Shown: positions 3,853 through 29,378 of the stretch, piece by piece
How the letters are laid out: the number at the start of each line of letters is the position of its first letter
How positions within the stretch are numbered: the first letter of the stretch is position 1
Assembly (NCBI GenBank): GCA_030613445.1
Contig: JAUWLY010000001.1
Coordinates: 1 to 36,940 of the forward strand
DNA: 36,940 nt
Reading direction: 5' to 3'
DNA from: Candidatus Stahliibacteriota bacterium
GTDB lineage: Bacteria; Hydrothermota; Tepidihabitantia; SM23-42
The notes under the pieces: generated by a model
The model's input: only the letters and a program-made list of their open reading frames with translations
Told to the model about the DNA's origin: nothing
Database searches by the model: none
Made by a program: the position numbers and the translations under genes

Positions 3853-3979
3853 AGTGCGAAAATTTATATCTATATTTTTGTCATTTGATTAGGACTATCT
3901 GACACAATCTTAGTTGCTTCCCTTTCTCCGTGTCTCCGTTTCTCCAAGTCTGCGTTTCTCAAAAAAGGTTTGACCCCAT
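3853..3979 (+). repeat. intergenic repeat block, copy 2 (homologous to 628..710)
   Basis: Same module order as 628..710, with an extra internal TCTCCGT-rich insert (CCTTTCTCCGTGTCTCCGTTTCTCC). Ends in GGTTTGACCCCAT. Confidence 0.7.
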
Positions 3980-4003: not shown

Positions 4004-4192
4004 TCATTGCGCAACATAGTGTAAAGACCTTCCTTTCCCAGAACTTCTAAGAACCCCTAATTTTACAAGTTTCTTGATTTCTTTCAGAGCACCTTCATCC
4101 GAAAGTTTAAACAGCTTCCTGGTAGGTAGGTTTTTCATATACCACACTTCATCTTGTCTTTTATCGAACCACTTCGTAAACAATCCATGCAA
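4004..4192 (-). CDS. small winged-helix-like protein, possibly a gene remnant
   Basis: 62-aa ORF with TTG start and no clear RBS. The C-terminal LKEIKKLVKLGVLRSSGKGRSLHYV looks like a wHTH recognition region. Its first ~23 codons plus upstream DNA are duplicated at 5575..5711. Confidence 0.3.
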   Translation of the reverse strand: MHGLFTKWFDKRQDEVWYMKNLPTRKLFKLSDEGALKEIKKLVKLGVLRSSGKGRSLHYVAQ

Positions 4193-4260
4193 TTATTACA
4201 AAGATAATAATAATTATACCGTAGCTCATTATTTCTCTGCGCCTCATTTTCCTTTTCACT
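4124..4260 (+). repeat. 137-bp direct repeat, copy A (pairs with 5575..5711)
   Basis: Hand alignment gives about 8 mismatches over 137 bp with 5575..5711. Covers the 5' end and upstream region of ORF 4004..4192. Confidence 0.9.
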
Positions 4261-4352
4261 TGTACATTATCCAAAATTTTGTCATAAAATCAACCCCCGT
4301 CCCCTAGTTTCATTTCTGCGCCTCGTTCGTCAGTGCAAAACTTATCTTGTAG

Positions 4353-4374
4353 AATGTCAAGACCTGCCACCTTT
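4353..4374 (+). repeat. 22-bp perfect inverted repeat, left copy (pairs with 8279..8300)
   Basis: AATGTCAAGACCTGCCACCTTT on the plus strand equals the reverse complement of 8279..8300, which holds the ATG and first 7 codons of the HNH gene. Confidence 0.9.
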
Positions 4375-4389
4375 ATTCATGTACCATTT

Positions 4390-4923
4390 CTATAAATATG
4401 ATCGTGCGATAAATTTTGCCATATGTGAAAGTACACGACAGCAAAATGGTTTCCTCATGCATATTTGCATCTTTCTATTAATATGAATAGATGAGACATT
4501 TTGAAAATAATTGCGCAACATATTAGATATATTTAAATCTTTTAAGTTACCATTATTGTGAATAATAATATTTCTGATTTGAGCATAGATGCAGATCTCG
4601 TCCCACGATTGATGAGATCTGACTGGATTTAAATTAGCTACTAGAGCAATATATTTATTGAACCTATCAAGGAATGATTTTCCACGTATATCCTGCAATT
4701 TCAATTCTAAATTTTTTTCTTGCGCGATGCGTTCACAAATATATCTTAAATGAGATTCAAATAAAGCATAATATCGCAAGAAAAAGGAATAGCGAAACGT
4801 CCTAATAGCTTCATTAATCCAAAATTCTCGTCTATATAATTCCATTTTCTGCTTTTTGATAAGACGAAGATGATGCTCTATTGTCGTTTCAAAAAGGTCT
4901 ACGTATATTCGTGCATAATACAC
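4390..4923 (-). CDS. HEPN-domain protein (RiboL-PSP / MAE_28990-like type), putative RNase
   Basis: 177 aa, all-helical-looking. Contains the Rx4H HEPN motif in YAQIRNIIIHNNG and an upstream LFESHLRYI helix typical of these families. GTG start at 4923, start uncertain. Confidence 0.6.
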   Translation of the reverse strand: MYYARIYVDLFETTIEHHLRLIKKQKMELYRREFWINEAIRTFRYSFFLRYYALFESHLRYICERIAQEKNLELKLQDIRGKSFLDRFNKYIALVANLNPVRSHQSWDEICIYAQIRNIIIHNNGNLKDLNISNMLRNYFQNVSSIHINRKMQICMRKPFCCRVLSHMAKFIARSYL

Positions 4924-4971
4924 ACTGGCGGATAAAATTAAATCCTCTATCTTCGTTATTATTCATCCTCC

Positions 4972-5394
4972 TTACTCTTTCAACATTCTACTATACGGCT
5001 TTTCAATAACTTCACCGTTTTTCTTTACTAAAAATACTCTTAATTTCAATAGTCGCCAAGCGTATTTCATTTTTTTTACTTTATTCTTATAAACACGCAG
5101 CCATTCATGTGGAATGCCAATTGCATATATTCGTCCCTTCTTAGGATGATTACCCTGAATATCCATCCTTGATATTATCTGTCCTAAAACATTATAAAAA
5201 GCGCTGTGTAGTTCTTGATGCTTGTGTTTACCGCTACCGCCTTTCACTTCAATAAATAACAACCTTCGCCACTTTGGATGCCAGGCATGAATATCCACCC
5301 CGTGTTCGCCAATACGCTTTGGTGCTTTCTTGATTTTCCAGCCTTTATCAATAAGGTATTTTCGAATATGTCGTTCAACTATTTTTTCTTTCAT
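4972..5394 (-). CDS. PD-(D/E)xK (restriction-endonuclease-fold) small nuclease-like protein
   Basis: 140 aa. ERHIRKYLIDKGWKI...GVDIHAW...LLFIEVKGG matches the alpha-beta-beta-beta core with D...ExK (D in GVDI, E-V-K in IEVKG). RBS AAGGAGAAAG before the ATG. Confidence 0.6.
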   Translation of the reverse strand: MKEKIVERHIRKYLIDKGWKIKKAPKRIGEHGVDIHAWHPKWRRLLFIEVKGGSGKHKHQELHSAFYNVLGQIISRMDIQGNHPKKGRIYAIGIPHEWLRVYKNKVKKMKYAWRLLKLRVFLVKKNGEVIEKPYSRMLKE

Positions 5395-5537
5395 CTTTCT
5401 CCTTACTCCCTAGTGTCTAGTGCCTACTGTCCAGTATTCCTCCTCTTACTACCCAAACAGCCATTCCTCACCTCCCTTGAGATTTCTCTTCGAATAAATA
5501 CTGCAATCACTCACATAATCAAAATGTCCAATGTCCA

Positions 5538-5574
5538 GCTGAAAGTGCTGAAGAATTGAAGTGATCTAACCCCC
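5538..5574 (+). repeat. 37-bp direct repeat, copy 1 (pairs with 7621..7657)
   Basis: GCTGAAAGTGCTGAAGAATTGAAGTGATCTAACCCCC is identical at 7621..7657. Weaker similarity extends upstream (AATGTCCAATGTCCAGC vs AAAGTCCAAAGTCCAGC). Directly abuts repeat 5575..5711. Confidence 0.9.
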
Positions 5575-5711
5575 AGGTAGGTTTTTCATATATCACACTT
5601 CTTCTTGTCTTTTATCGAACCACTTCGTAAACAATCCATGCAATTATTACAAAGATAATAATAATTATACCCCAACTCATTATTTCTCTGCGCTTCATTT
5701 TTCTTCTCACT
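5575..5711 (+). repeat. 137-bp direct repeat, copy B, with truncated copy of the 4004..4192 gene start
   Basis: Near-identical to 4124..4260. In this copy the reading frame (TTG CAT GGA TTG TTT ACG AAG TGG TTC GAT AAA AGA CAA GAA GAA GTG TGA) stops after 16 codons. Confidence 0.9.
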
Positions 5712-5740: not shown

Positions 5741-6049
5741 TTAAGGTTTGACCCCACATCTTGTACCATCTTCAAGTCTTCTTAAATGTGAGAACTCAGT
5801 AATTTTAACTACTTCAGACATTATCTTCAATAAATCATTTTGGTGCGTTTCTTGATGTCTGGCGAGAAAATCGATTAGGGCTGAAACAATATTTCTCTTA
5901 TACTCATTCCAATTGAGTTTTGATAAGATACTCGGATCGCTAATTGTATGCATTATGAAACTGCGAAGTTCTGCTTTATACCAATAAATACTGGTTAACG
6001 CATTTTTTAAGGCATTAATAGCAGCTGATGATATAGCTTTCTTTCTCAT
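5741..6049 (-). CDS. hypothetical protein, operonic partner of the TIR protein (possibly truncated)
   Basis: 102 aa. RBS GAGGAAAAG, and the start is 9 nt after the TIR gene stop. The last codons and stop (TGT GGG GTC AAA CCT TAA) lie inside the recurrent GGGGTCAAACC motif. No family recognised. Confidence 0.5.
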   Translation of the reverse strand: MRKKAISSAAINALKNALTSIYWYKAELRSFIMHTISDPSILSKLNWNEYKRNIVSALIDFLARHQETHQNDLLKIMSEVVKITEFSHLRRLEDGTRCGVKP

Positions 6050-6058
6050 TCTTTTCCT

Positions 6059-6784
6059 CTAATAACTCTTTATAATCTCATTATGTAATATATCTGCAAT
6101 TTCTTTCAAAGATTTTTCATTAGTTATTAACGCAATTTTATCAGCTAATGGTGGACTATATCGGAGTACATCTTTCTTGTTTATACCATGCCAAATAGGT
6201 AAAATCACTTTCTGCCCTTCTATTTCTCGGGCAACCAAACCATTCAATTCATATTCTGGCCAATCTTTATCAAAAAAAGCCGTTGAGAGTACAACTATAC
6301 CGAATCTTGAATTTACTAATCCTTTATCTATTGATTGTCTTAAACTATCTCCAACTCTTAATTCAAATTCATCATACCATATTTTTAATCCCAGTTCGGT
6401 TAATTGTCTAGCCAATGGTCTCACAAATGAGTTCTTATCTTCACTAGCATGACTTATAAATGCATCATAGCCAATATTATTTGGTTCATTTTTCGTTTTA
6501 TTAAATTCACTATCGTACAAACGTAACATTAACCCAGAATGAAAACTAAATGCTTCATCAGCGGAATTGAATTTTGATTTTGTATATAGGTTCATCGGTG
6601 TGGTGCCTCCTATAACCCACCATTCCTTATCATTTTTGTCTGTTGTGACAACTGATAATACTATATCTTCTTTTCCAAACAGGTAAAAAGTTTCATAGTA
6701 CTTAATATCAATTACTTTCGTTTTGCCTTCCAACTCAACATATTCCTTTGCTCGTTTAATGATTTCCTTTACATCTAATCCCAT
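6059..6784 (-). CDS. TIR-domain protein with unrecognised ~105-aa N-terminal domain
   Basis: The C-terminal 135 aa (YDAFISHASEDKNSFVRPLARQL...IWYDEFELRVGDSL...IVVLSTAFFDKDWPEYELNGL...ILPIWHG) matches bacterial TIR_2 hallmarks, including the glutamate in W.EYEL. RBS AAGGAGGG. Confidence 0.85.
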   Translation of the reverse strand: MGLDVKEIIKRAKEYVELEGKTKVIDIKYYETFYLFGKEDIVLSVVTTDKNDKEWWVIGGTTPMNLYTKSKFNSADEAFSFHSGLMLRLYDSEFNKTKNEPNNIGYDAFISHASEDKNSFVRPLARQLTELGLKIWYDEFELRVGDSLRQSIDKGLVNSRFGIVVLSTAFFDKDWPEYELNGLVAREIEGQKVILPIWHGINKKDVLRYSPPLADKIALITNEKSLKEIADILHNEIIKSY

Positions 6785-6848
6785 TAATCCCTCCTTTGAT
6801 CACAGTCCATTGTCGAGATTTGACCCCACATCTCCTGCCTCATTTTTA

Positions 6849-7481
6849 TCAATAAGCCCATTGTACTGTCCATATCGTATTGCCGAGTGTATCTGGCCAG
6901 CATTCTACCAATACTACTCTTGGTACAGTAATTGATATACTACCAGAGTCAATGAAGATGTTTGTATCACGATAAACTTCCCAACAATAATCGTCAACCG
7001 TTACAGTATCGGATACGACAATAGTATGAAATTCATCTGGCGGAGCATCTACATGGAGAATATAATCTCCACTTGCGCCGGTCAAATGTAAATCAATTGG
7101 TGAGAGACAAGTACTATCATAACCACTGCTATGTAGACATATTTCACATTCTTCAAATGGTGGATAGTATAAATAAATCAGATCGGTGGTAATGGCAGAT
7201 TCGATGAGCTCATCTTCAACATAGAGATCGATAATTAATGTATCACCATAATACGAGGAAAAGATACCCTGAACGATCTCGTATTCATCCTCTAATTCAT
7301 GATTATGCGAAGCTGGTACGGTATCCATGCCTTCAATATAATTGTTACCAGGTATATCGCCAATATAGTAATAAAATTCAGCTCCATCAGTACCGCTAAC
7401 TCTAAACTCAACGCTTTGTGGGTAATTACCACAACCAGCGACAAACAGAATTGCGCAGCCCAACCAGATATAGCCTTTCAT
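6849..7481 (-). CDS. lipoprotein, function unknown
   Basis: 210 aa. The signal peptide with lipobox (MKGYIWLGCAILFVAG-C) predicts a lipoprotein. RBS GGGAGG 5 nt upstream. Confidence 0.7.
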   Translation of the reverse strand: MKGYIWLGCAILFVAGCGNYPQSVEFRVSGTDGAEFYYYIGDIPGNNYIEGMDTVPASHNHELEDEYEIVQGIFSSYYGDTLIIDLYVEDELIESAITTDLIYLYYPPFEECEICLHSSGYDSTCLSPIDLHLTGASGDYILHVDAPPDEFHTIVVSDTVTVDDYCWEVYRDTNIFIDSGSISITVPRVVLVECWPDTLGNTIWTVQWAY

Positions 7482-7620: not shown

Positions 7621-7657
7621 GCTGAAAGTGCTGAAGAATTGAAGTGATCTAACCCCC
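7621..7657 (+). repeat. 37-bp direct repeat, copy 2 (pairs with 5538..5574)
   Basis: Identical 37-mer located 38 nt downstream (gene sense) of the stop of 7696..7992. Confidence 0.9.
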
Positions 7658-7695: not shown

Positions 7696-7992
7696 CTACC
7701 GCTTTTTCCTTTTAGTCTTTGATAAATTAGTCACGGTAACATGCATCCTCTTCTTACGCACCTGCTGCATTGCTTTATTCATATCCTTTTGCGGAACCCT
7801 TAGGATTTTATTTTTATTCCTTTGAGTTTTCAAACGAGACAACGCTTGATCTATCTTCTTCGGAGTACCGCCTCTTTCAACTTCGATTGCATGATGACCG
7901 CGAATTGCATCAAGACGACGACCACGTGAAATAGGAACTTCTTTTCGAGCGGCTTTCCCCTTGCCACGTTTGTGTGATCTACTTTCTGGCAT
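7696..7992 (-). CDS. hyper-basic small protein (nucleic-acid-binding?), partner of the HNH gene
   Basis: 98 aa, very rich in K/R at both ends (HKRGKGKAARK...; ...KTKRKKR). The central RLDAIRGHHAIEVERGG is faintly nuclease-core-like, but no family is recognised. Lies 46 nt downstream of the HNH gene. Confidence 0.5.
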   Translation of the reverse strand: MPESRSHKRGKGKAARKEVPISRGRRLDAIRGHHAIEVERGGTPKKIDQALSRLKTQRNKNKILRVPQKDMNKAMQQVRKKRMHVTVTNLSKTKRKKR

Positions 7993-9532: not shown

Positions 9533-9955
9533 TTACGTCGGTATCTGTATTGTATCCAGCACGATCGGTGGTAAATTCATGTTTAGGGTCATCTGGTGTA
9601 CGCATTGCCGGAAATAGGGCCATGTTTGAAGGCGTAAGCTACTTTTGGCAAATATGTTAAAATATGCTTTATTAATCGGCATTTTTAACGTATATTTCAG
9701 TAAGTAATGTATCTCCATTGCAAATCCAGGCTTATCTGCATCTTTTTTCTTTCCTTTGAGTGTATAGATCTGCTTTACTTCGATTTTTTTCTCATCTATT
9801 GATTCATAACTTGCTTCATCCTTTATTAACAAACCAGCTGGAGGTTCGAAGTTCTTATCCACTGTTGCTTTTAGCGATGTCATTTTTATTTCATCGAGCG
9901 TTAAACCTTTGATGAATTTTCTATATTCGGATTTGGTGACCTTTATCTCCTTCAT
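9533..9955 (-). CDS. SecB-like chaperone (third gene of a TAC module)
   Basis: 140 aa. The C-terminal FAMEIHYLLKY...LRLQTWPYFRQCVHQMTLNMNLPPIVLDTIQI parallels E. coli SecB FLCEVQQGGIF...[41 protein letters not shown], and the start is 9 nt after the hicB stop. Confidence 0.65.
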   Translation of the reverse strand: MKEIKVTKSEYRKFIKGLTLDEIKMTSLKATVDKNFEPPAGLLIKDEASYESIDEKKIEVKQIYTLKGKKKDADKPGFAMEIHYLLKYTLKMPINKAYFNIFAKSSLRLQTWPYFRQCVHQMTLNMNLPPIVLDTIQIPT

Positions 9956-9964
9956 TATTACCTC

Positions 9965-10516
9965 TTAGGATCTTACAACTCCTGGTTTTTTCCATGTCAT
10001 TTTAGGTATTTTGCTTTTTTCTGACAAGGTTTCATATACCGTATCAGGTTGGGCTATTTTCATTGCTTCTTGTTTTAACTCGTATTCTCCTTTGGTTCTG
10101 CTTTCAATTTCCCATAAAGCAGTTTTAATTTCAATTTTAATTTCCTTAAAAGTCACCCGCTCGGACAAAAGTGTTAGTGCCATCTGATTAAGGCTGACGC
10201 CTTCTTTCTTAGCCAAGCGAGCAATGCGACGGTGCAGCGAAATTGGAATCCTCACAAGGAACTTGCCACTATATTCCTTGGTTGTCTCAGGTTCAGAAAC
10301 AACCTGATTTTTTTTCAGCATCGATTCAAACCACATTTTTTTTGCTTGTTCAAGATTTTTCAATGCTTCTTCTTGCGTCTCTCCTTGAGACATGCAGCCA
10401 GTCAATTCATCAATCTCAGCGAAGAATCCACCTGCTTCTTCTGGCATTAGTTTTATGGTGTATGGAAGACTCAAATAATATTCAAGATCGTGCTTTTTAT
10501 TCTTAATTTTGCTCAT
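9965..10516 (-). CDS. hicB: HicB-family antitoxin with RHH domain and a ~50-aa C-terminal extension
   Basis: 183 aa. HicB N-domain (YTIKLMPEEAGGFFAEIDELTGCMSQGETQEEALKNLEQA). RHH segment (GKFLVRIPISLHRRIARLAKKEGVSLNQMALTLL). Extra tail ...TALWEIESRTKGEYELKQ...KMTWKKPGVVRS. Overlaps hicA by 14 nt, and GGAGG precedes the ATG. Confidence 0.8.
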   Translation of the reverse strand: MSKIKNKKHDLEYYLSLPYTIKLMPEEAGGFFAEIDELTGCMSQGETQEEALKNLEQAKKMWFESMLKKNQVVSEPETTKEYSGKFLVRIPISLHRRIARLAKKEGVSLNQMALTLLSERVTFKEIKIEIKTALWEIESRTKGEYELKQEAMKIAQPDTVYETLSEKSKIPKMTWKKPGVVRS

Positions 10517-26308: not shown

Positions 26309-26400
26309 AAACCAGGAACCAGGAAAAGCGAAGAGCGAAAAGGCACAGCAGGTGGGGTCAAATCCCCAGTATACACGATAACGAGGGCAGGCAATAACGG

Positions 26401-26552: not shown

Positions 26553-26966
26553 TTAAACTGTTTCTAACGCGGGTATTTTGATATTTTCGAAATTCTCCTC
26601 TGACCAAGCTCTGGGGAGAAGAATGGCATAAGGGATTAACTCTTTCATGTATGCAGCGCCATGAAGGTCGCTGCTGTGAATGATGATCATAGCTTTTTTG
26701 TTTTTATGCTTCGGATGTTTCTTTATCCACTCCGCAACCACTCCCCCGCTTATATCAGTATCCTTTGCCCAAACTGGAGGCTCGCCAAGATCATAGTCCA
26801 GGAAGATAATATCGTATTTCTTTTTGGAAAGGCATTCAATACATTCCCTGGCAGTCGTGACGTGGGTGATGTCAGTGATATCTATTGGTTTCAGCCGTTT
26901 TTCAAATTCTATTGCCCGGCTGTACATATCATCAAGGATAAGAACTCTGATGCTTTTCTCAAACAC
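26553..26966 (-). CDS. stand-alone non-canonical receiver (REC)-like domain protein
   Basis: 137 aa. RVLILDD...YDIIFLDYDLG...AMIIIHSSDLHG follows the REC beta-alpha pattern, but the conserved Lys region is missing. Resembles the LDhDLG / hHS.N..G type REC-like family. GTG start sits 6 nt after the -10. Confidence 0.55.
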   Translation of the reverse strand: MFEKSIRVLILDDMYSRAIEFEKRLKPIDITDITHVTTARECIECLSKKKYDIIFLDYDLGEPPVWAKDTDISGGVVAEWIKKHPKHKNKKAMIIIHSSDLHGAAYMKELIPYAILLPRAWSEENFENIKIPALETV

Positions 26967-27214: not shown

Positions 27215-27721
27215 TTATTCTTTGCTAAAACCGATTTTGCGTTTCGCTTTCTCAGGTGGAATCATGAGCTGTCGGATAGCTTCGAATACCGCCTTAAACT
27301 GAACGTCATATTTTTTCTCAAGAGCATCAATTTTTCGCATAAGATCTTTATGCGTTGCTAATACTTCTCGTAGCCTAATAAATGTCCTTACAACCAGTAC
27401 GCTTGTTTGAACAGCTATTTGACTGTTCAATACCGAAGCAAGCATAACTGCACCGTGCTCAGTAAATGCATATGGTAGATATGGTGCATATTTGAGAGAA
27501 CTAAGGTGGTCGCAATTTGCGACCACTTCTTGTTTCTCTTCTTTGGTAAGTTGAAACATAAAATCAATGGGAAACCTTCGTTTATTCCGTCTGACTTGCT
27601 CATTTCACCTTTTTGTCGACACTCCATAGAGCTTTGCTAGATCTCTATCTATTATAACCTTGTGACTACGGATAATCAAAATCTTTTTTTCTATAATTTC
27701 TTGTGATATGGTTTTCTTCAT
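27215..27721 (-). pseudogene. ORF6N/KilA-N-like DNA-binding protein gene interrupted by one in-frame TGA
   Basis: ORFs 27605..27802 (from ATG 27721, MKKTISQEIIEKKILIIRSHKV...LYGVSTKR) and 27215..27559 are in the same frame. A single TGA (27605-27607) replaces the Leu of the paralog (ETRVLIQAVKRN vs STKR*NEQVRRN). Collinear with 28860..29378. Confidence 0.65.
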
Positions 27722-28125: not shown

Positions 28126-28863
28126 TTAGTAGGCATATTTTTTGATGATTGCGGAGGTTATGTAGTGGCTGACGATTGTGGTCTTTAAATTGCTGTATTC
28201 TAATTTTAATCTCTGTGCTTCGATAACATTTTTTCTGGTTAAATATAAACCGGTATACTGGTGATAATAACCATCAGTTTCGTGTTGGAACCAGTGGTGT
28301 GCTATGCTAAAACCGCCTTCACATGTAAGCCACAAAAGATTTGAATCAGGACGCTTAGAAAAATCACCACCATGATCGAAAGGACGTGCTCCTAAACGAG
28401 TTTTGGAGAAACCGACGTGCAGTGAATAGAGCCACATTCCTGCCTTTTTGTTCGGGCTGATGACTACATCTTTAATGTGCCATAATTTCTTTAATGCCTT
28501 ATTTATTGCAACTGAATCGGTCAGATTAATATATACTTTTTTGCCTTCGATAATAAAAGATCCATCGTCAACAGAGTAATTTTTCATATAATCGTCCATA
28601 AGTAACCATCTTTTAAAGTGTTCTAATTTTTCTTGTCGTCTTAGACTTTTTAAGATACTGTCAAGTCTTACTATTGTATTCACTCTTACTGCAACATCAT
28701 CTGCAAACCTTGCTTGTCGATTATCTCCACCATAATTGTTGACAAATATAGCATCAAAATATGCAGCATGCCATTTGCATTCCATTGTTGCAGTAGCATA
28801 AACAAGTGAGAGATTAAAAGGTAAAAGTAAAAGGTTAATACATATTTTTGCTAACTTGCTCAT
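28126..28863 (-). CDS. hypothetical exported/membrane-anchored protein, translationally coupled to ORF6N gene
   Basis: 245 aa. N-terminal hydrophobic segment KICINLLLLPFNLSLVYA. The start ATG overlaps the upstream TGA stop (ATGA, 28860-28863). No family recognised. Confidence 0.6.
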   Translation of the reverse strand: MSKLAKICINLLLLPFNLSLVYATATMECKWHAAYFDAIFVNNYGGDNRQARFADDVAVRVNTIVRLDSILKSLRRQEKLEHFKRWLLMDDYMKNYSVDDGSFIIEGKKVYINLTDSVAINKALKKLWHIKDVVISPNKKAGMWLYSLHVGFSKTRLGARPFDHGGDFSKRPDSNLLWLTCEGGFSIAHHWFQHETDGYYHQYTGLYLTRKNVIEAQRLKLEYSNLKTTIVSHYITSAIIKKYAY

Positions 28864-29378
28864 TTTTTTCTGTATTTATAAAATCCGATTCTTTTTTGCG
28901 GTTTTTTTGGTGGGGTCATAAGCTCGCGGATCGCATCGAATATCGCCTTGATTTCCACATCGTGCTTTTCTGTTTTTCGTTCGAGTTGGTCTAATTTGTG
29001 AACTAATTCTTTATGCGTAGATAGAATTTTGCGTAATTTTACAAAAGCACGCATTATGGCGATGTTAACTTGGATAGCCCTTCTACTTCGTAGAACACTG
29101 GAAAGCATCGCAACTCCCTGCTCTGTAAAGGCATAAACATTGGGCGCATGTTTGAGTTTTGAACTTATCACAAATTGTGATAAGTTTAATATCTCTGCTC
29201 GGGTTAATGAAAACATAAAATCATCGGGAAATCTCTCAATATTACGTTTTACAGCCTGAATTAACACTCTTGTTTCAACTTGATAAAGCTCAGCAAGGTG
29301 CGTACTGATCATTATCTTATGACCACGGATAACCAGTATATTTTCTTTGATTATTTCTTTTGGTACTATTTTTTTCAT
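28860..29378 (-). CDS. ORF6N/KilA-N-like DNA-binding protein (intact paralog)
   Basis: 172 aa. ILVIRGHKIMISTHLAELYQVETRVLIQAVKRNIERFPDDFMFSLTRAE...YAFTEQGVAMLSSVLRS..A..VNI.IMRAF fits the ORF6N domain pattern, followed by a coiled-coil tail. Confidence 0.75.
   Translation of the reverse strand: MKKIVPKEIIKENILVIRGHKIMISTHLAELYQVETRVLIQAVKRNIERFPDDFMFSLTRAEILNLSQFVISSKLKHAPNVYAFTEQGVAMLSSVLRSRRAIQVNIAIMRAFVKLRKILSTHKELVHKLDQLERKTEKHDVEIKAIFDAIRELMTPPKKPQKRIGFYKYRKK

Follow-up and report, generated by a model that had tools for sequence, protein, structure and literature searches.

Direct repeats around a PD-(D/E)xK-fold gene and a HEPN-like gene in a Candidatus Stahlbacteria contig are copies of a dispersed small gene

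RESULTS

Organization of the locus

The window analyzed here is a stretch of 36,940 nt from a Candidatus Stahlbacteria metagenome-assembled genome (MAG). Its segment from ~4.0 to 7.7 kb is low in GC, with 33–36% GC at 4–7 kb versus about 39–42% in the adjoining few kilobases. All features described below lie on the minus strand and are given in the direction of reading. The segment opens with the first copy of an exact 37-nt repeat (X1; 7621–7657), located 38 nt past the stop codon of a 98-aa gene. The first gene of what we call unit 1 is a 210-aa ORF without a family match (6849–7481), whose N-terminus, read by eye, resembles a putative lipoprotein signal. It is followed by a gene for a TIR-domain protein that is ThsB-like and PDC-S66-like (6059–6784) and by a 102-aa ORF (5741–6049). 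The latter matches a 314-aa gene with an Mrr_cat-like C-terminus over its first ~95 codons; that gene is intact at another locus (L013) and truncated near position 5764 in the window.

The second copy of a 137-nt repeat (R-B; 5575–5711) comes next and directly abuts the second copy of the 37-nt repeat (X2; 5538–5574). Beyond X2 lie a gene for a 140-aa protein with a XisH-like PD-(D/E)xK fold (4972–5394), a HEPN-like gene (4390–4959), the first copy of the 137-nt repeat (R-A; 4124–4260), and the 3' remnant of a fic/DOC gene (4004–4120). Among the window ORFs run against Pfam, which comprised most ORFs of at least 90 aa, none matched an integrase or transposase. No tRNA was found in the window, and Rfam gave 0 matches anywhere within it.

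The original prediction for this locus described a restriction-endonuclease-fold ORF and a 177-aa HEPN ORF (4390–4923) separated by 48 nt and bracketed by direct repeats, and this layout was confirmed. The two repeats differ at 8 of 137 positions (94% identity), and exactly two copies are present in the window. Much of what had been built on that layout did not hold up, as set out below.

The 137-nt repeat is a dispersed small gene

We searched for further copies of R with a degenerate pattern for the C-terminus of a short peptide encoded within it, and recovered seven metagenome contigs and four genomes, of which three are Ca. Stahlbacteria MAGs. The collection came to 12 distinct copies in Ca. 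Stahlbacteria MAGs and metagenomes; an nhmmer profile run over the fetched loci gave no diverged copies beyond the pattern matches. The flanking genes are different at every R locus, and R also occurs singly beside housekeeping genes. A 28-aa frame is open in all 12 copies, including both copies in the window (copy A, 4161–4247, MRRREIMSYGIIIIIFVIIAWIVYEVVR; copy B, 5612–5698, MKRREIMSWGIIIIIFVIIAWIVYEVVR; stop codons included). A promoter consensus, TTGACA-N17/18-TAATGT, is conserved in every copy except R-B; in copy A, a σ70-like promoter (TTGATT-16-GATAAT) lies at 4266–4293. R-A and R-B are paralogous copies of a lineage-specific, scattered small gene in which a promoter and a short leader precede a 28-aa ORF.

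The peptide has a charged N-terminus and one hydrophobic helix, is predicted to be single-pass, and reaches a mean Kyte-Doolittle value of 3.4. The ORF may plausibly be coding, although its pN/pS is 0.66 and its variation is not biased to the third codon position. A protein-database search returned only two called proteins matching the peptide, since ORFs so short are rarely called. The peptide had no match in Rfam or among protein families. RNAalifold and minimum-free-energy folding of the 12 copies gave a z-score of -0.2, which is not significant, and we rejected a structured sRNA. We also considered an attC-like or hairpin nature for the repeat and rejected it: single-stranded DNA folds of both R copies and of X were no better than those of shuffled sequences (z-scores of -0.7 to -1.4).

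These results change how the repeats are read. They had been taken to duplicate the upstream region and 5' end of a small winged-helix gene, the distal copy being a dead remnant with a premature TGA. The 62-aa ORF behind that reading is an upstream extension to a TTG codon in a frame overlapping that of the peptide, and this frame is interrupted by stop codons in other R copies (L019, L021, and L022). The TGA is indeed present in that frame of copy B, but the 28-aa ORF is intact there, and the description of this copy as a dead remnant is not supported.

The makeup of R raises the possibility that it is a type I toxin–antitoxin-like or otherwise selfish small-peptide module whose copies stabilize nearby DNA and supply homology for rearrangements. 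Like the type I toxins Hok, TisB, Fst, and Ibs, the peptide combines a single hydrophobic helix with charged ends, and its gene is a multicopy intergenic unit that brings its own promoter and a short leader. In addition, genomes that share 68–80% identity in the neighboring genes are 93.5% identical in the unit. Against this, a simple consensus scan gave no antisense promoter overlapping the peptide ORF, the transcript fold was not significant, neither Rfam nor protein families offered a match, and the pN/pS is just 0.66. We put this forward as a tentative suggestion, more probably wrong than right. As a reading of what R does, it can stand alongside the account of the locus that we prefer.

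Copy A is the resident copy, and copy B resembles a local duplicate

Homology of the copy A locus to other genomes runs from ~4376 to 4124. Positions 4136–4365 are 93.5% identical to locus L023 and positions 4161–4373 are 88.8% identical to locus L026, so that in both cases the match continues ~115 nt upstream of the repeat. In L026, which belongs to a related MAG, a single R copy is followed by an intact gene for a 345-aa Fic protein (Pfam Fic, 4.6e-22); in L023, R is followed by a homolog of the window's DUF2007 gene. Over 44 aa, the segment at 4004–4120 and the C-terminal end of the L026 Fic protein share 84% identity (E = 3e-22). What had been taken for a winged-helix gene is therefore what remains of the 3' end of a decayed fic gene, namely the last ~38 codons, which encode the C-terminal winged helix. 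The Fic homology starts outside the repeat. Copy A, judged from these alignments, is the resident copy of the small gene, with its own promoter and upstream region and the fic remnant adjoining it. An empty-site check of the relatives showed that ones with a single R do exist (L023 and L026), with upstream sides that differ from the window or end at a contig end.

R-A and R-B share derived characters that are specific to this locus. A Tyr24 codon is common to both and was seen only in this window, and their shared 3' end, GAAAAACCTACCT, follows the fic deletion. Each copy also has four private changes. The shared characters favor local duplication, and they point to R-B, a partial copy without the promoter, having been derived from R-A rather than captured with a foreign circular cassette.

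The original prediction overlooked the second direct repeat, X, whose copies at 5538–5574 and 7621–7657 are 100% identical over 37 nt. Not a single base separates X2 from the 3' end of R-B. The end of one unit (R-B) is thus joined to the start of the next (X2), while X1 lies at the far start (7621–7657) and R-A at the far end (4124–4260). The locus reads as two head-to-tail units, [X-cargo1-R][X-cargo2-R], an arrangement that is the signature of local tandem duplication. As at tandem duplication junctions in bacterial chromosomes, the unit end R is joined directly to the start X, and the ends of the units are identical or near-identical. The locus differs from such junctions in that the unit interiors are now wholly different, and a second step of replacement or decay must be assumed.

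The R copies are 6% apart and the X copies identical. At equal age, ~2 mismatches should have built up in the 37 nt of X, so the fit is marginal. Searches of the genome and viral contig collections and of all fetched loci gave no further copy of X, and R copies elsewhere have no X nearby; on these grounds, a mobile family of X...R cassettes was rejected as the leading model.

The 140-aa protein is XisH-like

The proposed PD-(D/E)xK fold of the 140-aa protein was borne out. The AlphaFold2 model had a pLDDT of 90.1 and a pTM of 0.85, and its best Foldseek matches in the PDB were to the XisH family, followed by YaeQ, NucS/EndoMS, Hjc, and tRNA-splicing endonucleases; most of the top matches have the PD-(D/E)xK fold. 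The GVDI...IEVKG motif lies in conserved columns of the family alignment, where D34, E49, K51, and Q72 are invariant across 31 homologs.

XisH (PF08814; PDB 2okf and 2inb), the "fdxN element excision controlling factor" of Anabaena/Nostoc, was matched with Foldseek E values of 9e-6 and 2e-5 and TM-scores of ~0.53–0.56 over the full ~130–140 residues. Both proteins have a small single-domain PD-(D/E)xK architecture, and the consensus of the 140-aa family aligns to positions 7–128 of the 134 in the XisH profile. The protein itself nevertheless scored 13.7 bits (E = 0.073) and the family consensus 18.4 bits, both under the Pfam cut-off of 25. Further differences are the phylum, the defense-island context, and the lack of a serine recombinase near the 140-aa gene. 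No Pfam match to the partner protein XisI was found in the neighbors scanned, a subset of those from six contexts. We take the 140-aa protein to be a stand-alone XisH-like PD-(D/E)xK enzyme and a predicted Mg-dependent DNase.

About 58 homologs make up this family, and none was found in viral contigs or plasmids. A 5' untranslated region of ~80 nt (up to 5473) travels along with the gene in other genomes.

The HEPN-like protein

Assignment of the 177-aa protein to HEPN stands at the level of its motifs, with profile support that is weak or transitive. We took the motif criteria (Rx4-6H, a polar residue after the R, and an upstream conserved acidic residue) from published work (PMC3710099). In an alignment of 60 homologs, the IRNIIIH (Rx4H) motif falls in conserved columns: within R117-N-I-I-I-H122, the R and H are invariant, and the N and an upstream E56 are nearly so. 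Weak PADLOC matches pointed to Csx1/Csm6 HEPN (E = 0.0024) and RTasHEPN (E = 0.0026). Six of the 60 homologs matched Pfam HEPN_RiboL-PSP, Cthe2314, or MAE_28990, while Pfam gave no match for the window protein itself or for the family consensus. The predicted structure is all-alpha (pLDDT 96). Foldseek searches with this model returned no PDB match at E < 2 and one uncharacterized phage protein in BFVD (E = 8e-4), and the family profile found nothing among PDB sequences. The family is large, with 1157 homologs.

The protein resembles stand-alone HEPN RNases of the abortive-infection type (RiboL-PSP, MAE_28990, and Cthe_2314; PMC3710099) in its Rx4H motif, the N after the R, the upstream Glu (here ExxxR), its predicted all-alpha fold, its defense-island setting, and the fact that some of its homologs reach those Pfam models. 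It differs from them in having no Pfam HEPN match or PDB structural match, in a long N-terminal coiled helix, and in a noncanonical start. We infer that it is a stand-alone, predicted metal-independent RNase of this type. In the window, the 177-aa reading begins at a GTG codon at 4923, and the frame of native length (189 aa) begins at 4959–4957, 7 nt after a GGAGG sequence, with ATA where homologs carry ATG. Because ATA replaces ATG at the start, this copy is probably expressed weakly or no longer at all.

The two genes do not co-occur in the other contexts read

In the window, the neighbors of the HEPN-like gene are the PD-(D/E)xK-fold gene and the small peptide gene. The original prediction treated the two genes as a two-gene cassette of a kind not known as a named defense or toxin–antitoxin system. 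For the 140-aa family, five independent contexts could be read, and for HEPN homologs six (three close and three remote); the other gene was present in none of the five and none of the six. Nor is the combination as such new: fusions and operons of restriction-endonuclease-fold and HEPN domains have been documented since 2013 (PMC3710099). Our search of the literature on XisH/XisI and HEPN RiboL-PSP proteins found nothing on a 140-aa/HEPN pair beyond that paper. The arrangement recalls HEPN–MNT toxin–antitoxin modules, in which a small HEPN protein is likewise encoded in a compact same-strand gene pair; here the partner has a PD-(D/E)xK fold, no minimal nucleotidyltransferase is adjacent, and the pairing is not conserved. 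It is likely that the DNase-fold and HEPN genes are unrelated stand-alone genes that arrived and act independently and were brought together by chance.

It could be argued that the 140-aa nuclease is the constant part of a two-gene module with a swappable downstream effector, which would be HEPN in the window and a small membrane protein or another nuclease in other genomes. In six of six contexts, a different gene follows closely on the same strand: genes for a 67-aa membrane protein, a 145-aa multi-pass membrane protein, and 409-aa, 75-aa HTH, and 230-aa proteins, and the HEPN-like gene in the window. The upstream genes, however, are just as close and just as variable (all-against-all BLASTP of the neighbors revealed no shared upstream partner), same-strand packing is typical of defense islands, and one of the downstream genes encodes an HTH regulator and not an effector. 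As the pattern comes from six contexts only, we think this reading improbable.

Even less convincing is the proposal that the PD-(D/E)xK and HEPN genes constitute a new two-gene defense or toxin–antitoxin system carried on a circular or linear cassette that integrated at the 137-bp site. Beyond the same-strand placement of the genes 48 nt apart between repeats and the low GC of the island, it can point to one contig of a k=31 assembly that holds exactly the two genes, though repeat-induced graph breaks would give the same result. Apart from the lack of co-occurrence in the 5 and 6 contexts, the two families are far apart in size (58 versus 1157 homologs), the stretch that the 140-aa gene unit shares with L006 and L007 reaches no further than the gene's own stop codon, and the HEPN gene has a damaged start codon. 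R is a dispersed gene, and its two copies here have the same locus-specific, probably fic-derived, 3' end, so an incoming R would have to originate at this very locus. No recombinase was found among the ORFs scanned and no tRNA in the window. Integron gene cassettes with their attC sites (e.g., the ~120-bp repeats of Vibrio cholerae) come to mind, as here too similar repeats of ~130 bp lie between same-strand toxin and nuclease genes, but R has no imperfect-palindrome fold, no integrase was found among the ORFs scanned, and R holds a promoter and an ORF. We consider cassette integration of a two-gene system very unlikely.

DISCUSSION

The account that we regard as likely for the locus as a whole combines scattered-gene repeats, a local tandem duplication, and independent genes in a mosaic defense island. 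The stretch at ~4.0–7.7 kb would then be a patchwork of the ordinary kind in a Candidatus Stahlbacteria chromosome. Under this account, the segment from X to R would have been duplicated in tandem, and the interior of one unit would later have been replaced or have decayed, possibly by recombination at short shared intergenic modules. The truncated 314-aa gene, the truncated fic gene, and the damaged HEPN start are three scars that fit such a replacement or decay step. No relative with a single X–...–R unit was found, and the order of events is not uniquely reconstructable.

A more ambitious combination would make the 140-aa nuclease the constant half of an exchangeable-effector defense module, the 28-aa gene a selfish unit resembling a type I toxin, and R the portable homology by which Stahlbacteria shuffle defense genes in units of the X-cargo-R type. 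We give this combination very little credence.

A chimera of strain variants, put together when the metagenome was assembled across the repeats, is a highly improbable explanation of the head-to-tail order. In its favor, the window is a MAG contig, and branch points of the assembly graph fall at the 37-nt X and at the 69-nt core over which the R copies are identical; an independent assembly of the same run at k=31 is interrupted in both, each time after exactly 30 nt. Against it, the junction between R-B and X2 has no shared sequence, and a de Bruijn assembler needs spanning reads to make it. A joint between R and X must therefore be present in the sample, however the copies are phased. In addition, 8 positions distinguish the R copies, and k141 contig names in related MAGs (not the window's own) suggest k-mers longer than the identical core.

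With the duplication account preferred, a false lead is removed: what looked like a neat cassette between long direct repeats is a scattered small gene present twice, together with a probable local duplication, and the seeming DNase–RNase pair is likely a chance neighborhood in a defense island undergoing decay. The trap is a general one, in that unannotated mini-genes too short for gene callers can mimic attachment sites. Three modest leads in a poorly known candidate phylum come out of the locus. The first is an unannotated, highly conserved gene family for a 28-aa membrane peptide. The second is a family of ~140-aa XisH-like nucleases that ride in defense islands and are not covered by Pfam, and the third is a large HEPN-like family, with more than 1000 representatives, that no Pfam model covers.

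Repeat R carries a small, dispersed open reading frame

Two copies of the direct repeat R occur in the window, copy A at 4124-4260 and copy B at 5575-5711, both on the minus strand, as are all genes across the region; they are 137 nt long and differ at eight positions (94% identity). Between them lie a 140-aa open reading frame (ORF; 4972-5394, minus strand) and a 177-aa, HEPN-like ORF (4390-4923, minus strand, GTG start), 48 nt apart. The physical description in the original prediction was therefore correct. Its reading of R as a duplication of the first 23 codons of a winged-helix (wHTH) ORF was not: that frame is an overlapping one extended upstream to a TTG, and it is interrupted by a stop in other copies of R. 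On the minus strand, both window copies contain an intact 28-aa ORF, MRRREIMSYGIIIIIFVIIAWIVYEVVR in copy A and MKRREIMSWGIIIIIFVIIAWIVYEVVR in copy B, which differ by R2K, Y9W and one synonymous change.

We searched for further copies using a wobble-degenerate pattern built on the C-terminus of the peptide, which matched seven JGI metagenome contigs and four GTDB genomes, three of the latter being Candidatus Stahlbacteria MAGs by taxonomy. Counted together with the window copies, these matches gave 12 distinct R copies. The 28-aa ORF (consensus MKRREIMSWGIIIIILVIIAWIVCEVVR) was open in all 12, starting with ATG in 11 and TTG in one, and in every copy but window copy B it was preceded by a promoter, TTGACA-N17/18-(GA)TAATGT, and a short leader containing the Shine-Dalgarno motif AAGGA. 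The ORF may plausibly be coding; its pN/pS is 0.66, and the variable columns at the three codon positions number 8/5/7. We found no significant RNA structure in the R-unit transcript and no Rfam match to the unit. The genes flanking the unit differ at each locus and include DUF3800, methyltransferase, nitroreductase, T9SS and Fic genes. Between the window and L023, a contig fetched for comparison, the unit is 93.5% identical over 230 nt vs. 68-80% for the neighbouring protein genes, and its conservation is far above that of its surroundings. We conclude from sequence comparison that R is a predicted small gene, dispersed among loci.

Copy A lies in its ancestral place and the locus was probably rearranged locally

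In the MAG CSMAG_2249 (L026), a single R unit is followed, 200 nt on, by an intact 345-aa Fic/DOC gene whose product matches Pfam Fic (4.6e-22) and has a winged helix at its C-terminus. The window wHTH ORF is 84% identical to the last 44 residues of this protein (E 3e-22), window 3934-4120 matches L026 1458-1667 at the DNA level, and about 1.1 kb of fic is absent from the window relative to L026. The wHTH ORF is a fic remnant. L023 and L026 also match copy A beyond the 137-bp repeat, for a further ~115 nt upstream; this match ends at ~4376, 14 nt away from the HEPN stop codon, and in L023 the R unit is followed by a homologue of the window's DUF2007 gene; copy A therefore lies in its ancestral place. 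The empty site that the original prediction implied, with one repeat running into an intact downstream gene, is most nearly approached by L026, where a single R is indeed joined to such a gene but does not overlap it. At window 3919-3960, a GGAG-rich sequence is repeated in tandem with a 16-nt period (2.6 copies), adjoining a TGGGGTCAAACC motif; L023 may have a longer repeat array at ~5186-5576, where artefactual ORFs encode repetitive peptides of the GER/GKG type.

Copy B has no promoter, and the sequence upstream of it is a different intergenic module common to the fetched contigs L007 and L013. Two characters are common to copies A and B and absent from every other R copy, the Tyr24 codon and the 3' end GAAAAACCTACCT; the latter falls at the joint of the fic deletion and probably originates from fic. 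These shared characters imply that B was copied locally from A, or A from B, after the fic deletion. Each copy also has four private changes.

A second, 37-nt repeat on the minus strand abuts copy B with zero bases between (X2, 5538-5574), and its 100% identical partner (X1, 7621-7657) lies just after a 98-aa gene. The minus-strand order is 98-aa gene, X1, 210-aa gene, TIR gene, 102-aa ORF, copy B, X2, 140-aa gene, HEPN-like gene, copy A and fic remnant, forming two head-to-tail units of 2083 bp and 1451 bp. The junction of a unit end with a unit start is the signature that a tandem duplication would leave, and since the interiors of the two units are now wholly different, one of them would later have been replaced. 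The same run was also assembled independently at k=31 (L001), and that assembly stops at exactly 30 nt inside X and 30 nt inside the 69-nt identical core of R; these break points fit the assembly graph without phasing it. Because there is no overlap at the joint between copy B and X2, that joint must exist in the reads. X was absent from genome_contigs, viral_contigs and all fetched loci (metagenome_contigs lay outside this search), and none was found beside the R copies of other loci, so we do not regard the segment from X to R as a mobile cassette family.

The two nuclease-like genes are not a pair

The 140-aa protein has 58 homologues, nearly all of 139-143 aa and without a precomputed Pfam domain; D34, E49, K51 and Q72 are invariant in 31 homologues. 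Against the PDB, its AF2 model (pLDDT 90) matched best to two XisH-family structures, 2okf and 2inb (E ~1e-5, TM ~0.53), and then to YaeQ, NucS/EndoMS, tRNA-splicing endonucleases and Hjc. The invariant residues and XisH-family matches uphold the PD-(D/E)xK fold originally proposed, and the modelled structure resembles XisH; by profile it is nevertheless not a member of the XisH family. The consensus of the 140-aa family scores 18.4 bits against XisH (cut-off 25) and 20.9 bits against Mrr_cat (cut-off 21). No member was found in IMG/VR or plasmids.

For the HEPN-like protein (177/189 aa), we found only three close homologues and 1157 remote representatives. Across 60 sequences, R117 and H122 of the RNxxxH motif are invariant and E56 is nearly so, a pattern that agrees with published HEPN criteria (PMC3710099). 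The AF2 model is all-alpha (pLDDT 96). PADLOC HEPN matches were weak (E about 2e-3), six of the 60 homologues matched HEPN Pfam families, neither Foldseek nor profile search returned a solved HEPN relative, and a BFVD search gave one uncharacterised phage protein. We consider it likely that the protein belongs to HEPN. Homologue N-termini align with in-frame codons upstream of the GTG at 4923, and the native start site, 7 nt after GGAGG, is ATA (4959-4957) in the window vs. ATG in the homologues; an ATG at position 4966 misses this frame by one base. Lacking a canonical start at the native position, HEPN expression is probably weak or lost.

Solitary HEPN and PD-(D/E)xK genes are common in defence islands. 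The 140-aa gene was absent near the close HEPN homologues (L002/3, L004 and L005), and the neighbours of remote plasmid homologues were a restriction endonuclease with an HNH gene, an Abi-family gene and an IS3 element. The 140-aa family was read in five independent contexts (L006, L007, L009, L027 and L029), whose upstream and downstream genes all differ, with no HEPN-profile match or shared neighbour. L006 and L007 match the 140-aa unit in DNA sequence from its ~80-nt leader to its stop codon and no further, placing the joint exactly between the two genes. Fusions and operons of restriction endonuclease-fold and HEPN domains are documented (PMC3710099); at this locus, the lack of co-occurrence in all these contexts overturns the proposed pairing, and we conclude that the two genes are not a pair. 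A modular arrangement, in which the 140-aa gene takes a variable downstream gene, would fit the observation that some variable gene closely trails it on the same strand in every context; we assign it low probability. A HEPN-MNT pair was rejected for this locus.

The surrounding island is a mosaic

In L013, which is 96% identical to window 5764-6795, an intact 314-aa gene whose C-terminus is Mrr_cat-like lies beside the counterpart of the window TIR gene; the 102-aa ORF (5741-6049) retains just the first ~95 of its codons. The TIR protein (6059-6784, minus strand) matches PADLOC PDC-S66 (2e-69) and ThsB (3.5e-44); at L013 240-1919 it is paired with the intact 314-aa protein, whose Mrr_cat match is weak. 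With this partner cut to ~95 codons, the window TIR module is probably defective. Past the intact gene, at L013 1940-2020, the same intergenic module precedes AGTGAGAAAAAGAAC-TGGGATCACCTATGAAAAAA, a sequence like the peptide unit's 5' and 3' edges with no ORF between them. It may represent a unit that is empty or has undergone deletion, or the likeness may be due to chance.

The 98-aa basic protein (7696-7992) has 94% protein identity in several Stahlbacteria contigs (L012, L014 and L015). Its DNA homology ends no more than ~16 nt from the stop codon and the downstream genes differ per genome, so the gene marks one edge of a hypervariable island. GC content is 33-36% across 4-7 kb vs. about 39-42% in the adjacent few kb.

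Short intergenic modules recur in this lineage and could serve as recombination points. One is a ~37-nt leader, GGAATGGCTGTTTGGGTAGTAAGAGGAGGAATACTGG, found at 92-97% identity upstream of unrelated genes on different contigs (window 5439-5475, L007 3252-3288, L006 4922-4957 and L020 5317-5333). Seven copies of the motif TGGGGTCAAACCT, in many cases with TTTTTTGAG after it, are present in the window vs. 0.7 expected, at 697-709, 752-764, 2794-2806, 3966-3978, 5744-5756 and 6816-6828 (minus) and 26353-26365 (plus), about 15-110 nt past the stop codon of the upstream gene; at 5744 the site and the end of the truncated 102-aa ORF overlap. L007, L013, L014, L017, L019, L020, L023 and L026 also contain the motif, which lies ~100 nt upstream of several peptide-gene copies in other loci. 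No obvious hairpin was seen at the motif, which may be a 3'-end or intergenic signal peculiar to this lineage.

Elsewhere in the window, adjoining minus-strand genes for a HicB-family antitoxin (9533-9955; Pfam HicB 2e-13) and a SecB-like protein (9965-10516; Pfam SecB 2e-4, PADLOC PD-T4-9_C 2.5e-5) resemble a toxin-antitoxin-chaperone arrangement, and L007 has a Gp49/HTH/SecB trio near its 140-aa gene. A cREC_REC (cyclic-phosphate processing receiver) domain protein (26553-26966) and two ORF6N (KilA-N-like) domain proteins (27215-27559 and 28860-29378) may be part of another conflict-system or mobile-element patch.

An integron cassette was ruled out, as R does not fold like attC and the locus has no integrase. 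More broadly, the integrated cassette of the original prediction gives way, in that a Pfam scan covering most ORFs of at least 90 aa showed no integrase or transposase and the window has no tRNA; the locus is not an integrative element. It is best classed as an ordinary mosaic defence island undergoing decay, and its direct repeats as paralogues of an unannotated small gene. The modestly novel by-products are the peptide gene family, the XisH-like 140-aa family and a HEPN-like family without Pfam coverage.
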